Origin: Lewinellaceae bacterium
GTDB lineage: Bacteria > Bacteroidota > Bacteroidia > Chitinophagales > Saprospiraceae
Direction: 5' to 3'
Assembly: GCA_963710195.1 (NCBI GenBank)
Contig: CAVPZF010000008.1
Coordinates: 1,179,410-1,243,409 of the forward strand
Length of the DNA: 64,000 bases
Shown piece after piece: positions 17,598 to 23,483 of this stretch. Under the pieces are notes generated by a model. That model had not been told where the DNA came from. It searched no databases and was given only the letters and a program-made list of their open reading frames with translations. A program made the position numbers and the translations under genes. How positions within the stretch are numbered: position 1 is the stretch's first letter; each line of letters opens with the position of its first letter.

Positions 17598-18653
17598 CTA
17601 AAGCGCCGCAGCAATCAGATTACCAAATTGCCGGGTACCCACCCTACGCGAAGGACGTAGATCTTCGGTACCTACTCCCTGGGCTAGGGTATCATTGACG
17701 GCCTGGCGGATCGCGGTCGCTTCTTCCCGCAGTTCCAGGTGGTCCAGCATCATGGCGGCGGACAGGATGGCGGCGATGGGGTTAGCGCGGTCCTGTCCGG
17801 CCCCTTCCGGCCAGGAGCCGTGGATGGGCTCGAACATGCCAACTGTTGCCCCAATGCTGCTGGAGGGTAGCAAGCCGAGGGAGCCCGCCAGTACGCTGGA
17901 GGCGTCCGAAAGGATATCCCCGAACATATTGCTGGTAACGATGACGTCGAACTGGGCCGGATTCAGGATCAACTGCATGGCGGCATTGTCCACGAACATG
18001 AAGTTCAGCTCCACGTCGTCGTTCTCCGCGGCTATTTCACGCGTCACCTCCCGCCACAGCCGGCTGCTCTCCATCACGTTAGCCTTGTCGACCAGGGTCA
18101 GCTTACGCCGCCGGGCCCGGGCTTCGACGAAGCCCATCTTTACGATGCGCTCGATCTCCATGCGGGTATAGGTACACGTGTCGTAGGCCGTATTGCCCCC
18201 GTCCTTGCGCCCTTTCTCCCCGAAGTAGATACCACCGGTCAGTTCGCGTACGATCAGCAGGTCTACGCCCTTGATGCGTTCGGGCCGCAGCGGGCTTAAG
18301 TCTACTAACTCGGCGTAGCCCGCTACGGGCCGTAAGTTAGCAAACAACCCGAGTTCCTTGCGGAGCTTCAGCAGTCCCTGCTCGGGCCGCACTTTAGCGG
18401 TGGGGTCGTTGTCGAAACGGGGGTGGCCGATGGCCCCGAAGAGCAGCGCATCACTGCGCTTGCAGAGCGCGAGGGTATCGTCGGGCAGGGGGTCACCGGT
18501 CTGGTCAATAGCCACGGCCCCCACGGGGGCGTAGGTGTAATCAAGGGTATGATTGAACTGGTCCGCTACCACGTCTAGCACCTTAATGGCTTCGGCGATG
18601 ACTTCGGGTCCGATCCCGTCTCCGTCCAGGACGGCAATGTTAAATGTACTCAC
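17598..18653 (-). CDS. leuB: 3-isopropylmalate dehydrogenase
   Basis: GDGIGPEV, PEQGLLKLRK, NMFGDILSD and EPIHGS motifs; probable GTG start at 18653. Confidence 0.96.
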   Translation of the reverse strand: MSTFNIAVLDGDGIGPEVIAEAIKVLDVVADQFNHTLDYTYAPVGAVAIDQTGDPLPDDTLALCKRSDALLFGAIGHPRFDNDPTAKVRPEQGLLKLRKELGLFANLRPVAGYAELVDLSPLRPERIKGVDLLIVRELTGGIYFGEKGRKDGGNTAYDTCTYTRMEIERIVKMGFVEARARRRKLTLVDKANVMESSRLWREVTREIAAENDDVELNFMFVDNAAMQLILNPAQFDVIVTSNMFGDILSDASSVLAGSLGLLPSSSIGATVGMFEPIHGSWPEGAGQDRANPIAAILSAAMMLDHLELREEATAIRQAVNDTLAQGVGTEDLRPSRRVGTRQFGNLIAAAL

Positions 18654-18663
18654 TTCAAGTAGT

Positions 18664-19257
18664 CTAGTGTTCGACCCGCTGCGCTTCAAAGGCTTCGATC
18701 TTTTCCCGCTGACTAAGCAGGAAATCGATGTCGTCGTAGCCGTTGATCAGGCAGGTCTTCTTGTAATCGTCAATCTCGAAACCGGTCACCGTGCCGGTCT
18801 CTTCGTTGGTCAAGGTTTGCTGCTCCAGGTCTACCGTGAAGCGGGCCACAGGATTCGCCTCGATGGTAAGAAAAATCTCGTCCAGGGCTGCGGGTGTGAT
18901 GGTCACCGGCAATAGGCCGTTGTTGAGGGCATTGCCCCTAAAGATATCCGCGAAGTAGCTCGACACCACCGCCCGGAAGCCAAAATCCTGGATTGCCCAG
19001 GCCGCGTGTTCCCGACTGGAGCCGCACCCGAAATTTGCACCGGCTACTAACAGCTCCCCCGCGTAGGTGGGATTGTTCAGTACAAAGCCTTCCTTAGGGT
19101 GATTCAGCTTGTCGTAGCGCCAGTCGCGGAAGAGGTTTTCCCCGAATCCTTCCCGGGTCGTCGCCTTCAGGAAACGAGCGGGAATGATCTGGTCGGTATC
19201 CACGTCCTCGATGGGCAGGGGGACGGCCGTGGTGGTTAGGGTTTTGAAGGGGTGCAT
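18664..19257 (-). CDS. leuD: 3-isopropylmalate dehydratase small subunit
   Basis: [14 protein letters not shown] and [14 protein letters not shown] motifs. Confidence 0.97.
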
Positions 19258-19262
19258 GGGGG

Positions 19263-19322
19263 TTTACGATTTACGATTTACGATTTCATTTCGATTTACG
19301 ATTTACGATTTACGATTTACGC
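19263..19322 (+). repeat. Heptamer array (TTTACGA)3-TTTCATTTCGA-(TTTACGA)3-TTTACGC
   Basis: Read directly from the sequence; it ends 5 nt upstream of the leuD ATG and supplies the stop codon of the four-helix-bundle ORF. Confidence 0.97.
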
Positions 19323-19696
19323 GCATTTCTCAGCCCCTCTTGTTTGTTCGTGATCCGCTTGGTGGTTGCCGTAAATATGGACACCAATTCGTTCGCTTCT
19401 TTAATAAGCGGAGCTACACGATTTGATTCCAGGTATCCCATTCTGCGTATGTAGCGTAACTCAGCGTGCGATTCTCTCAATTCTTTGAGTAGTACTTTAA
19501 TCTTGTGAAGAAAATCTTTCTGTGACTCTGCGGCTCTTGCTTCCGGATAGTGAAATCCTGGATGCGTTGCCGCACGCAGGAGTTGCCCCGCTACGTGCTG
19601 CGCATCAAAGTACTGCTTCGTTGGCAGCGCCCGGCAGAGTTTAGAGCACCGCACCCCATAGTCAAGCAACCTTTCTTCTAATTCTCCTGCAGTCAT
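19310..19696 (-). CDS. Four-helix-bundle protein (23S rRNA intervening-sequence protein family)
   Basis: LEERLLDYGVR..KL, GQLLRAAT, EARAAES.KDFLHKIKVLLKELRES and KEANELVSIF pattern; a hand count of 19321-19500 gave about 45% GC versus above 60% in spot-checked leuC lines. Confidence 0.88.
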   Translation of the reverse strand: MTAGELEERLLDYGVRCSKLCRALPTKQYFDAQHVAGQLLRAATHPGFHYPEARAAESQKDFLHKIKVLLKELRESHAELRYIRRMGYLESNRVAPLIKEANELVSIFTATTKRITNKQEGLRNARKS

Positions 19697-19814
19697 GTCA
19701 TTTCTCTAGGTGACTACAAGCATACAAAATACTTAACAGACAAACAAATTGTTTTAAAATATTTGCCCTCGGTCGAGCCGTACCGGACGAAGCGAGTTGC
19801 CCCACCAATCTACC

Positions 19815-19857
19815 ATCGTAAATCGTAAATCGTAAATCGTAAATCGTAAATCGTAAA
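19815..19857 (-). repeat. Heptamer array (TTTACGA)6 on the minus strand, inverted relative to 19263-19322
   Basis: Six perfect ATCGTAA units on the + strand; on the mRNA the array begins 2 nt after the leuC TAG. Confidence 0.97.
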
Positions 19858-19859
19858 TT

Positions 19860-21242
19860 CTACCTTCTAACGTCCACAATCCGCCCAGCAATCGCCGCCG
19901 CCGCCGCCGTAAGCGGACTCGCCAAGATTGTCCGCGCGCCGGGCCCCTGCCGCCCCTCAAAGTTGCGGTTAGAAGTGGAGACGCAGTAGCGGCCGGGGGG
20001 CACCTTGTCCTCATTCATCCCCAGGCAGGCCGAGCAACCCGCACCGCGAAACTCAAAGCCGGCGGCCTCGAAGACCCGATCTAGCCCCTCGGCAACGGCC
20101 TGACGGGAGACTTGCTGGGAGCCGGGAACGACGATCGCCGTGATCTTCTCGTGCACCCGCTTCCCTGCCACTAGTCCCGCGGCAAGACGTAGGTCCTCAA
20201 TGCGGCTGTTGGTACAGGAGCCGATGAAGACGTAGTCGATGGGCATATCCTGCATCCGCTGACCGATGGTGAGGTCCATGTAATTCATCGCTTTAAGCAT
20301 GCTGGCCTCGCCGTGCAAGGCGCTGGCCAGGGGGATCGAGTCGGCCACGCCCATGCCCATGCCCGGGTTGGTACCGTAGGTGATCATGGGGGGGATGTCC
20401 TCCGCCCGGTAAGTGTACTCCGTATCGAAGAAGGCGTCGGCGTCGGTCGGGAGAGTCTTCCAGAACGCGACGGCGGCGTCCCATGCCGCTCCCTTCGGAG
20501 TGAACTTCCGTCCCTCCAGGTAGTCGAAAGTAGTCTGATCGGGCGCAATAAGGCCACCACGGGCGCCCATCTCGATGCTCATGTTGCAGATCGTCATCCG
20601 CCCCTCCATACTCAGATTCCGGATGGCGCTGCCGGCGTACTCCACGAAGTGACCGGTGCCCCCGCCCGTGCCGAGTTGGGCGATCACGTAGAGGATGAGG
20701 TCCTTGGCAGTGACGCCGGGCTGTAGGTCGCCTTCGACGTTGATGCGCATCTTTTTAGGCTTAGCCAGCAGCACGCACTGGGTCGCCATAACTTGTTCTA
20801 CCTGGCTGGTGCCGATGCCGAAGGCGATTGCGCCGAAGGCCCCGTGGGTACTCGTATGGCTGTCGCCGCATACCATCGTGATGCCCGGGCGGGTGATGCC
20901 CAGCTCGGGGCCGATCACGTGTACGATGCCCTGGTAGGGGTGGCCGAGGCCGTAAAGCTCCACGCCAAACTCCGCGCAGTTGCTGGTGAGCATCTCGACC
21001 TGCTTGCGGCTGAGGGGCTCGGTGATGGGCTTATCCTGGTCCTTAGTCGGTACGTTATGGTCGGCCGTGGCCACGATCCGCTCCCGGCGAAACAGCGGAA
21101 TGCCGCGCTGGCGTAGTCCATTGAAGGCCTGAGGGCTAGTCACTTCGTGGATCAGGTGCTTGTCGATGTACAGGACTTGGTTGCCCCCGGGTACGGAGGT
21201 GACGACGTGGGTGTCCCATACTTTATCGAATAGGGTGGGCAT
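19860..21242 (-). CDS. leuC: 3-isopropylmalate dehydratase large subunit
   Basis: TLFDKVWD.H, HEVTSPQAF, CGDSHTSTHGAFG, FIGSCTNSRIEDL, GCSACLGMN and STSNRNFEGRQG motifs. Confidence 0.97.
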   Translation of the reverse strand: MPTLFDKVWDTHVVTSVPGGNQVLYIDKHLIHEVTSPQAFNGLRQRGIPLFRRERIVATADHNVPTKDQDKPITEPLSRKQVEMLTSNCAEFGVELYGLGHPYQGIVHVIGPELGITRPGITMVCGDSHTSTHGAFGAIAFGIGTSQVEQVMATQCVLLAKPKKMRINVEGDLQPGVTAKDLILYVIAQLGTGGGTGHFVEYAGSAIRNLSMEGRMTICNMSIEMGARGGLIAPDQTTFDYLEGRKFTPKGAAWDAAVAFWKTLPTDADAFFDTEYTYRAEDIPPMITYGTNPGMGMGVADSIPLASALHGEASMLKAMNYMDLTIGQRMQDMPIDYVFIGSCTNSRIEDLRLAAGLVAGKRVHEKITAIVVPGSQQVSRQAVAEGLDRVFEAAGFEFRGAGCSACLGMNEDKVPPGRYCVSTSNRNFEGRQGPGARTILASPLTAAAAAIAGRIVDVRR

Positions 21243-21425
21243 GATGGCTCTATTTGGGCCACAAAGATAAACAGATCGGGACGGGACGGCTCGCGACCCC
21301 CGGTCGCGGCAAAGCACACCCAAGCGGAGGTCGGGAATCGGATACCCTAGCTGCTACTCCCAATTTTTGCACCTTTGCTACCTCTTCGTACCCGCACCTA
21401 TTATAGATAAACACCTCTTCATTCC

Positions 21426-22208
21426 ATGTAGAGCTCCGAAACGTACCACCCGGAACCTTACTGGTCTACCGTAGCCAAGCGCATCCGACACCGGGGTGAT
21501 GCCAACATCATTACCGGAGACGACGAGGCCTACTACCGCTACAAAAGGGAGCGGTTTTTAGAAATGCTCTCCTCTCTGGATTTCGGTGGAAAGTCGGTGC
21601 TGGAGATCGGGCACGGCCCCGGCGGCAACCTGCGGTTTATCCTCGACTCCCCCACCCCTCCCCCCGCTAAACTGATGGGTGTTGACATATCCAGCGAGAT
21701 GGGAGCCCTCGCCCGTTCTACACTACCCGAGAAGGTGGAGCTGACTAAGATAAACGGGACCAAACTGCCCTTCCCGGATTGTTCGGTAGACCTGGTCTTC
21801 ACTGCAACGGTCTTACAGCACAATACGGATGAGGCCATGCTCAGGCCATTGATTCAGGAAATTGCTCGGGTCGCGAAAACGGAAATTCACCTTTTCGAAC
21901 GGATTGATGATCCTATCGCCGGTGATGAGCTGTGCTTAGGCAGACCCGTGAGCTACTACGCGGATCTTTTTCGGGTGGAAGGATTTGAGCTCGTTGATAC
22001 CAAATTCATCAATATTCACGCCAGTTACCTCATGGCCGGCACCATCCGTAAAGTGCTTAATTCCAAGGACCGGGAAGAGGGGGAGCCCCTAAATGCTTTC
22101 TCGCTGAACCTTCAGGAGACCCTGCTGCCCCTATCCAAACGATTAGATCAGGCGATGCACAAGGACCGTGACCTGGCGAAACTAAGCTTCCGTCGAAACG
22201 GCAAGTGA
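21426..22208 (+). pseudogene. Class I SAM-dependent methyltransferase with in-frame TAG at codon 2 (intact ORF only from ATG 21564)
   Basis: VLEIGHGPGG, GVDISSEM and DLVFTATVLQH motifs; ATG-TAG at 21426-21431 is followed by 44 open in-frame codons. Confidence 0.65.
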
Positions 22209-22328: not shown

Positions 22329-23483
22329 TCAGGCGGCGACCCCCTTCATCATACCCTCTAGATCGGTGTCCTCTACTTCTTTCTTCTGGTCGGCGATGGT
22401 CAGAAATTCCTCATACGCCTCGTCGAGCTGAACTTTAGTGAGATCGTAGCCGAGCAATTTGAAGCGGTAGGCCAGGGCGGCGCGGCCGCTGCGTGCGGTG
22501 AGGACGATCTTGGACTGGTCGACGCCGACCTCCGCCGGGTCGATGATCTCATAGGTGTCGCGCCGCTTGATGACGCCGTCCTGATGAATACCGGAGCTGT
22601 GGGCGAAGGCATTGTCGCCCACGATGGCCTTATTCGGCTGCACCAGCATACCCATACTTTCGCTGACCATATGGCTGGTCTCGAGCAGCAATTTAGCGTT
22701 GACGTTGGTGTACAGGCCCAGGTCGGCGTGCTGCCGCAGGATCATTACGACTTCTTCCAGAGCCGTATTTCCGGCGCGTTCGCCGATGCCGTTGATGGTG
22801 CACTCGATCTGGCGGGCACCATTCTGCGCCCCGGCAATAGAGTTGGCGGTAGCCAGACCCAGGTCGTTGTGGCAGTGGGTACTCAGGATGCAGTTGTGGA
22901 TGCCGTTGACGTTGTCGCGCAGGTAGGCGATCTTGGCTCCGTATTCTTCCGGTAAGCAGTAGCCGGTGGTGTCGGGGATGTTGAGCACCGTTGCACCCGC
23001 GTCCACGACTGCCTGAATGACGCGGGCGAGAAATTCATTATCCGCACGGCCGGCGTCTTCGGCGTAGAACTCCACGTCTTCTACATAAGACTTAGCGTGC
23101 TTGACGGCCGCCACGGCGCGCTCGATAATTTTCTCGGGCGTAGTGCGGAGCTTGTATTGAATGTGGCTGTCGCTAACACCGATACCCGTATGAATACGGG
23201 GGTGTTTGGCAGGCCTCAGGGCTGCGGCGGCTACGTCAATGTCGTTCATCACGGCCCGGGTGAGCCCGCAGACAATCACGTCCTTAACCGTACGGGCGAT
23301 CTCCTGCACCGACTTAAAGTCGCCGGGACTAGAAACCGGAAAGCCAGCCTCGATCACGTCTACGCCGAGCAGCTCTAGCTGACGGGCGATCACGATCTTT
23401 TGCCGAGTGTCCAGCTTGCAGCCGGGCACTTGCTCGCCGTCGCGCAGCGTAGTATCAAAAATCTGTACTTGCTTGGTATTCAT
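22329..23483 (-). CDS. leuA: 2-isopropylmalate synthase (short form without C-terminal regulatory domain)
   Basis: [28 protein letters not shown] and [12 protein letters not shown] motifs. Confidence 0.95.

Follow-up and report, generated by a model that had tools for sequence, protein, structure and literature searches.

An inverted-heptamer cassette enclosing a four-helix-bundle gene between leuC and leuD in a Lewinellaceae bacterium, and its counterparts in Neolewinella/Lewinella

The spacer between leuC and leuD was analyzed in a window of 64,000 nucleotides (contig CAVPZF010000008.1, positions 1,179,410 to 1,243,409) from the Lewinellaceae bacterium assembly GCA_963710195.1. The genome, designated G000, is 4.47 Mb in size with 60% GC, and is 99% complete. 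The leuC and leuD genes encode the two subunits of 3-isopropylmalate dehydratase and are followed by leuB (Table 1). Their spacer is entirely occupied by a cassette of 602 bases, in which two complementary arrays of a heptamer enclose a gene for a four-helix-bundle protein; the arms abut the stop and start codons of the host genes. On the minus strand, the leuC stop codon TAG (19862-19860) is followed by AA and then by the left array, which Tandem Repeats Finder placed at 19815-19858 (period 7, 6.3 copies, 100% matches). The right arm is built of (TCGTAAA)3 (19315-19295), TCGAAATGAAA (19294-19284), and a second (TCGTAAA)3 (19283-19263). The same program scored it at 19263-19321 with period 7, 8.9 copies, and 92% matches, and CCCCC separates it from the leuD ATG at 19257. 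The four-helix-bundle gene starts at the ATG at 19696, and its TAA stop codon (19312-19310) falls within the first TCGTAAA unit of the right arm. Because the repeat period is 7, TAA occurs in every frame within three units; the right arm closes all three reading frames, and translation entering it therefore ends before leuD. The GC content is 0.43-0.53 across 19300-19800, whereas it is 0.58-0.69 in the flanks. The four-helix-bundle gene is the only open reading frame (ORF) inside the cassette, and no transposase is present. An earlier sequence-only reading of this DNA had described the arrays around the leuC stop and the leuD ATG, the lower-GC interior, and a four-helix-bundle gene with a repeat-supplied stop codon, and had supposed that the cassette is free of a transposase. 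The array layout was correct in all details by sequence and Tandem Repeats Finder, the GC values and the TIGR02436 match agreed with it, and the sole ORF is the expected one.

Table 1. Features of the leu-operon cassette and its host genes (positions in the window).
Feature	Positions	Strand	Remarks and basis
Left arm, (TTTACGA)6	19816..19857	-	Begins 2 nt past the leuC stop; sequence, Tandem Repeats Finder, pairing with the right arm in the fold
Inner-left motif CTCGCTTCGTCCG, variant of GCTCGCTNCGCTCG	19784..19796	-	Sequence
Promoter-like TTG-N20-TAtgCTTG, conserved AAACAATTTGTT just ahead	19717..19747	-	Pattern search; putative function
Four-helix-bundle gene, 128 aa, isoelectric point 9.7	19310..19696	-	TIGR02436, AlphaFold, Foldseek
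Right arm, (TCGTAAA)3-TCGAAATGAAA-(TCGTAAA)3	19263..19321	-	Ends 5 nt ahead of the leuD ATG; sequence, Tandem Repeats Finder, fold
leuC, 3-isopropylmalate dehydratase large subunit	19860..21323	-	PF00330 Aconitase, E = 1.1e-171; true start likely MPTLFDK at 21242
leuD, small subunit, ATG 19257	18664..19257	-	PF00694 Aconitase_C, E = 4.2e-33
leuB, 3-isopropylmalate dehydrogenase, same operon, downstream	17598..18689	-	PF00180, E = 2.3e-127

Inverted arrays of this kind are a recurrent feature of the gene family. Each of the five TIGR02436 genes of G000 lies between inverted tandem arrays; the unit differs from gene to gene, and host stop or start codons are 0-9 nt from the arms in every case. 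The unit is TTTACGA in the leu cassette and TTAGTTCG/AGAACTAA in the cassette on contig 5. The cassette at an nrdB-like/nrdA-like junction has ATATGCG/CGCATAT, the one that separates two Fe-S protein genes has arrays of the GGTTGTTG type together with a 14-mer, and a truncated four-helix-bundle copy is surrounded by CCGGTAG/CTACCGG. The surveys of relatives covered a single genus (Neolewinella/Lewinella), in which 60 further TIGR02436 loci were collected, 54 of them with a usable ORF. Arrays were scored by the reverse-complement 8-mers common to both 300-nt flanks, with a threshold of at least 10. This threshold was reached at 26/54 genus loci, as compared with 21/5000 random G000 windows (0.4%) and 1/54 loci in the same-strand (direct-orientation) control. 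The sequence-only reading had supposed that similar flanks occur at other four-helix-bundle genes in Bacteroidota, and both surveys bear this out for G000 and for the genus.

The two arms of a cassette also match each other specifically. Among 15 cassettes, cognate flanks had a mean of 9.6 reverse-complement 9-mers in common vs 1.16 for non-cognate flanks; 68% of the non-cognate pairs had none, and the same-strand control was about 0. The minimum free energy (MFE) folds paired the upstream and downstream flanks over at least 30 bp in 13/15 cassettes. When the right flank was replaced by a foreign one, the chimeras had a mean of 22.5 long-range pairs vs 59 for the cognate sequences (Wilcoxon p = 1.5e-4). 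The co-varying inverted arrays proposed for this gene family were thus found: the units change among orthologues, and the arm pairing is kept. The k-mer sharing and chimera folds replaced an RNAduplex matrix of 170-nt flanks, which was non-discriminating, with energies dominated by GC-rich coding flanks. Array counts over lags 5-11 came from windows of unequal length, were not comparable, and were left unused. The right-arm identity between orthologues is 0.6-0.8, a value without a shuffled low-complexity baseline that was not taken as evidence of sequence constraint.

The leuC|leuD junction was compared across the genus. LeuD was found in 17 further genus genomes and two outgroups, and the junction lay on one contig in 16; together with G000, 17 genus junctions could be read. 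A homologous cassette fills the exact site in nine of them (G000, G011, G018, G004, G002, G015, G003, G005, and G014), and likewise in the metagenomic contigs L023/L024 and L026. Three junctions (G013, G001, and G010) have clean empty spacers of 10-18 nt. In G012, a left-arm piece is joined to a right-arm piece at an AAATGTT word that is found in both arms of filled relatives. A 27-nt AATTCTA-type array without a gene remains in G016, and possible cassette fragments occur in G017 and G007. The comparison of relatives that the sequence-only reading had proposed thus yielded filled, empty, and scarred states. The G006 junction (L012:2079-2833) has no four-helix-bundle cassette; it contains a PIN_2 toxin gene of 148 aa overlapping an upstream 103-aa ORF, which probably form a toxin-antitoxin pair. 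Small modules have settled at the leu junction more than once.

The arms of the filled sites differ in unit: TTTACGA in G000, L024, and L026; ATTACCA/TTTACGA in G011; TTTACCA/TTTACAA in G018; TTTAAAA in G004; TTTAACA/TTCAACA in G002, G003, and G005; and GAAGTNN in G014. The copy number also varies in the right arm (14 units in L024 vs 3+3 in G000). The arms are closely fitted to the host genes. In G011, G018, and G014, the left arm contains the stop codon of leuC, and the GTG start of leuD in L024 is formed by the end of the right arm. All 11 leu-site cassettes (11/11) are co-oriented with the host operon. On the poorly resolved LeuD tree, the filled state costs about five changes; the site was therefore filled long ago and then emptied repeatedly or refilled.

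Sequence divergence also indicates that the cassettes are old. Pairs of the leu-site four-helix-bundle genes have a synonymous divergence (pS) of 0.75-0.96, which is saturated, and a nonsynonymous to synonymous ratio (pN/pS) of 0.10-0.30. Purifying selection therefore acts on the protein, and none of the copies is recent. By this divergence, the cassette has long occupied the leu site, and a recent insertion does not fit. Between G000 and G011, its closest relative, the identity is 85-92% in leuC, leuD, and leuB, as compared with 50-68% precisely from the leuC stop to the leuD start, arms included. At four-fold sites, 71% are identical in leuD vs 26% (9/35) in the four-helix-bundle gene (P = 8e-6, allowing for baselines). 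From this divergence island it follows that the two cassette alleles are older than the species split. Exchange of cassette alleles by homologous recombination through the conserved flanking genes would be the simplest explanation for this sequence pattern; a raised local mutation rate is the alternative reading.

Genes of the same subfamily also occur at other loci. L022 (N. litorea), with GAAGTAC/GTACTTC arms, is flanked by genes for FKBP and an M20 peptidase, and L081 is another copy away from the leu site. The subfamily has therefore reached new sites, but in the distant past. No target-site duplication was visible on comparison of filled and empty leu sites, although the tail of leuC has diverged in G013, which has the nearest empty site. 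No near-identical copies were found among the compared four-helix-bundle genes, in which all pairs are saturated at synonymous sites. The sequence-only reading had suggested a mobile cassette. The gene and arms do act as one unit, but active spread was not supported, with saturated copies, no visible target duplication, and no recent duplicates.

The protein encoded by the cassette matched TIGR02436 with E = 1e-13 (51.4 bits vs a cut-off of 24). The PF05635 match of 33.5 bits is marginally under the cut-off of 33.8, and database relatives carry PF05635; the names of relatives of the protein assign G000 to Neolewinella/Lewinella. The AlphaFold model (predicted local distance difference test score 97.1) contains four helices, at residues 3-23, 30-54, 59-86, and 91-127. 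The best Foldseek matches were BT_0352 (2RLD, template modeling (TM) score 0.74-0.87), Xcc0516 (2GSC), and Avd (4DWL, 8UB7), and phmmer matched 2RLD with E = 3.6e-7. The link to the S23p/Avd family stated in the sequence-only reading is supported at the structural level by the Foldseek matches to 2RLD, 2GSC, and 4DWL. The cassette proteins are basic (isoelectric points 8.5-9.8). The solved relatives 2RLD, 2GSC, and 4DWL are each listed with chains A-E, and the Xanthomonas S23p protein was described as a homopentamer (PMC4990558). No reverse transcriptase (PF00078) was found in the 99%-complete G000 genome, which rules out a reverse-transcriptase-dependent mechanism like that of the diversity-generating retroelements (DGR).

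RNA folding of a 641-nt stretch paired the two arms over 18+25 bp about the internal irregularity TCGAAATGAAA. The MFE was -207.5 kcal/mol (z = -7.3), and 0/20 shuffles were as stable. This predicted stem of 43 bp agrees with the arm duplex of about 40 bp that had been estimated from the sequence. No Rfam family matched in 18600-20400. No terminator-like site was found on the minus strand within 19258-19859, where the right arm followed by CCCCCATG is not of the intrinsic-terminator form; read-through from leuC to leuD is therefore plausible. The rnc gene for RNase III is present in G000. Pattern search located TTG-N20-TAtgCTTG at the same offset in G000, G011, G018, G004, L024, and L022. We take this pattern to resemble the Bacteroidota -33/-7 promoter type, and it may represent the cassette's own promoter.

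Similar arrays are dispersed over the genome. G000 contains 127 period-7/8 arrays in a few families, and each four-helix-bundle cassette uses one main family. The gene context statistics rest on crude ORF calls; by these, 109 arrays were mostly intergenic, though about 86% of G000 is coding, and arrays were enriched between convergent genes and beside stop codons and depleted between divergent genes. The motif GCTCGCTNCGCTCG (GCTCGCT[TGA]CGCTCG) has 134 matches in G000 at no more than one mismatch, mostly just inside 7/8-nt arrays, and the metagenomic orthologue L023/L024 carries it in the consensus form. It is often part of foldbacks without a gene, organized as array-core-loop-core'-array' (e.g., C7:274428/274462 and C4:214534/214574). 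Another inner motif, GCT[AG]CCGCA/TGCGG[TC]AGC, recurs within cassette arms of different subfamilies and species. No passenger gene was found in the other inverted array pairs of G000 spaced 400-800 nt, which contain internal tandem repeats only. At C1:29811-30471, C8:813685-814225, and C4:245857-246554, inverted 8-nt arrays of the AGTTCTTT type spaced by 400-600 nt have no gene between them, but internal tandem repeats of about 24-30 nt. The array families are strongly species-specific, and TTTACGA arrays are absent from most other genus genomes.

The repeat unit varies with the protein subfamily. In the genus survey, SYRDLEVYK-type proteins had GGTTGCA/GGTTGCT arms. NERAAQLExRL-type proteins, several at nrdB/nrdA, had NNNATCG arms (ATATGCG, GAGAATC, and GCCAATC). 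The FxxWxAYxK type had [TG]TAGTNN(N) arms, and the leu type had TTTA[CA]NA arms. After removal of the orthologous-locus pairs, protein similarity and the sharing of arm 7-mers were correlated (Mantel rho 0.21, with 0/2000 permutations as high). This link would fit recognition of the repeat by the protein, and would equally fit plain co-inheritance of gene and arms.

Two further cassettes of G000 illustrate other sites. The cassette between the nrdB-like stop and the nrdA-like ATG (G000:C8:1472081-1473795) belongs to another subfamily, has ATATGCG/CGCATAT arms, and is also represented by L032, L066, and L078. A unit of about 77 nt, consisting of its left arm and the GCTCGCTTCGCTCG motif, occurs six times. 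The same junction is also filled in G001, G017, and G006. The cassette at G000:C7:343913-345627 (also L076) lies between genes for a 447-aa 4Fe-4S protein and a 261-aa CCG-domain protein (PF02754), with arms that touch the host stop and ATG.

Taken together, these analyses favor an old, rarely moved hairpin cassette in an mRNA operon, similar to the intervening sequences (IVS) of rRNA, which has been exchanged and lost, with a stem that would act in the transcript and a protein that would bind the repeat. We put about even confidence in this reading. The leuC gene, the cassette, and leuD would be co-transcribed. Pairing of the arms in the RNA would place the passenger gene in a loop and set the leuC stop beside the leuD start, so that the insertion would be harmless. 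By analogy with the rRNA intervening sequences, the stem may be long enough for RNase III. Alternatively, it might gate the initiation of leuD until the ribosome finishing leuC melts the stem. The protein is probably pentameric, as its solved relatives are, and may bind its own repeat array as RNA or DNA; by this binding it would regulate its own expression or shield the cassette. Turnover would be mostly deletion and homologous exchange through the conserved flanking genes, and true transposition would be rare.

Several results weigh against this reading. Elsewhere in the genus, the cassettes between co-directional genes are co-oriented in 20/31 cases and antisense in 11/31. A role tied to the host mRNA therefore cannot be general; strict co-orientation as a general rule is refuted, and the host-mRNA setting assumed in the sequence-only reading is not obligatory. 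The relative G001 has 28 (TTTACGA)3 windows (no more than two mismatches), an empty leu junction, and no gene of the leu subfamily. Repeats without the gene, which the sequence-only reading had named as an observation that would count against it, thus occur in a relative in the form of dispersed TTTACGA arrays. The dispersed arrays are therefore independent of a resident cassette with the same unit, and G001 rules out the simple form of a "master copy" idea, in which each array family needs a gene with that unit. Several orthologues have imperfect arms, in which the perfect runs are as short as 10-15 bp, and few long-range pairs were present in the MFE folds of 2/15 cassettes. In the pattern search, the promoter-like pattern was confined to one clade, with none in the G002/G003/G005 clade. 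Finally, the covariation from which protein-repeat binding is proposed could also arise by common descent of gene and arms.

Another explanation places the function in the DNA. The cassette might be a foldback mobile element whose arrays are terminal repeats recognized by the four-helix-bundle protein or by a host enzyme; the gene cassette would be autonomous, the gene-less foldbacks non-autonomous, and the RNA stem incidental. The filled, empty, and remnant sites, the same subfamily at other loci, and the cassettes in both orientations relative to host genes are consistent with such an element. The inverted arrays have the form of terminal inverted repeats. The 127 arrays in few families, with one family per cassette, the gene-less foldbacks, and the unit type that tracks the subfamily would also be accommodated. 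However, no nuclease, recombinase, or reverse transcriptase domain was found, and neither a target-site duplication at the leu site nor near-identical copies are visible. The 28 TTTACGA windows of G001 lack a subfamily gene, and the arrays lie mostly in transcribed spacers, favoring stops over starts, with few between divergent genes. We regard a DNA foldback element as rather unlikely.

A somewhat more doubtful explanation is that the arrays are independent host or selfish hairpin repeats, and that a mobile gene module alone settles in existing hairpin loops, as in rRNA helices. The abundant gene-less arrays and foldbacks of the same units, the G001 arrays without a gene, and the short G016 array without a gene at the leu junction would be expected under this explanation. 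However, the divergence island between G000 and G011 takes in the arms, not the gene alone. The G012 remnant is a deletion derivative and not a pre-insertion state, because its junction sits in the AAATGTT word of both arms in filled relatives. The match of unit and subfamily at different loci would moreover require unit-specific targeting. The last explanation, that slippage-prone low-complexity arrays without function lie beside a small gene and are complementary by chance, is highly improbable: array copy number does vary (3+3 units vs 14 in L024) and many arms are imperfect, but 5/5 and 26/54 loci are armed vs 0.4% of random windows and 1/54 in the direct-orientation control, cognate and non-cognate flanks clearly differ, the fold has z = -7.3, and chance origin is excluded by the enrichment and covariation tests.

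The hairpin cassette may be compared with several known systems, among which the 23S rRNA IVS is closest in organization. In Coxiella, the IVS (helix 45) is 428 nt long, has a 28-bp terminal stem, contains (GACAGAT)3 heptamers as well as an S23p ORF, and is cut out by RNase III; its authors proposed that the ORF-bearing 23S rRNA IVS was once mobile (PMC4990558). The leu cassette shares with the IVS of Coxiella and Leptospira (PMC4990558) an S23p/PF05635 passenger, a length of about 430-600 nt, the lack of a transposase, complementary ends with a stem of 28-43 bp, and tandem heptamers in the stem region. However, it is flanked by leuC and leuD, and not located in helix 25 or 45 of the 23S rRNA, and a single heptamer makes up the long arrays of its arms. 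The leu-site gene is under purifying selection and seems to have a promoter of its own, whereas in Coxiella the ORF is in decay and probably not translated. RNase III excision was shown for the Coxiella IVS, and is a possible fate of the leu cassette.

The cassette protein resembles Avd (PDB 4DWL, 8UB7) in its four-helix-bundle fold (Foldseek TM 0.63-0.77) and basic character. Avd is pentameric and binds nucleic acid within a ribonucleoprotein. Unlike in the DGR systems of Avd, no reverse transcriptase occurs in G000 and there are no template or variable repeats; the sequence identity is low (11-14%). Dispersed heptamer arrays have been described before, such as TAACTGA in Beggiatoaceae, Cyanobacteria, and Bacteroidetes (PMC4679880) and GGGNATC in Xanthomonas and Nostoc (PMC4692102). 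Like these arrays and the cyanobacterial short tandemly repeated repetitive (STRR) sequences, the arrays of G000 are tandem 7-nt, intergenic, copy-variable, and lineage-specific, and they are close to stops and starts, in most cases with co-directional or convergent neighbors. The earlier reports concern arrays alone, without a gene family, whereas the arrays of the cassettes are inverted pairs around genes of one specific family. A full-text literature search found no paper linking the four-helix-bundle family to inverted arrays in operons, and no account of such a cassette outside rRNA. Many-copy palindromic intergenic repeats, including the gene-less array-core-loop-core'-array' form, are also reminiscent of repetitive extragenic palindromes and bacterial interspersed mosaic elements (REP/BIME) and of foldbacks like miniature inverted-repeat transposable elements. 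Unlike REP/BIME, they have no RAYT or transposase partner, and their arms are tandem arrays with fast-changing units.

The TRAP protein is a ring-shaped oligomer that binds (G/U)AG repeats in the trp leader. By analogy, although the fold is unrelated, a ring oligomer of the cassette protein could read one short repeat per subunit, which would account for the constant period and for the match of unit to subfamily; written as RNA, the other array units include AUAUGCG, UUAGUUCG, and GGUUGCA. In its most general form, which we offer tentatively and consider rather improbable, PF05635 pentamers might read tandem 7-8-nt arrays in a sequence-specific manner, each subunit taking one unit and each subfamily having a unit of its own. 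The gene and its inverted arrays would then be one heritable system that colonizes transcribed junctions such as operon spacers and rRNA helices, and its footprints or satellites would be seen in the heptamer and octamer arrays scattered over the genomes of many bacteria.

Two further observations were made in the window. The row of leu genes is broken by a SAM-dependent methyltransferase gene (21564-22208, plus strand) between a leuA-like gene (22329-23483, minus strand) and leuC. A tandem repeat with a 148-nt unit (2.3 copies, 94% matches) lies at 51-391.

In summary, sequence and structural analyses suggest that four-helix-bundle genes in Neolewinella/Lewinella and their inverted arrays might form one functional unit. 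If true, this would connect the role of the common S23p/Avd-like proteins, the origin of the rRNA intervening sequences, and the excess of intergenic 7-nt repeats. The leu site could serve as a test bed, as its hosts are housekeeping genes with an easy phenotype (leucine prototrophy) and the genus includes named species. Its junction provides natural filled, empty, scarred, and allele-swapped versions, and the nrdB/nrdA cassette, with another subfamily and unit, would allow swap tests. If the stem insulates the inserted gene in the operon, it would also offer a simple rule for building passenger genes into polycistronic mRNAs.

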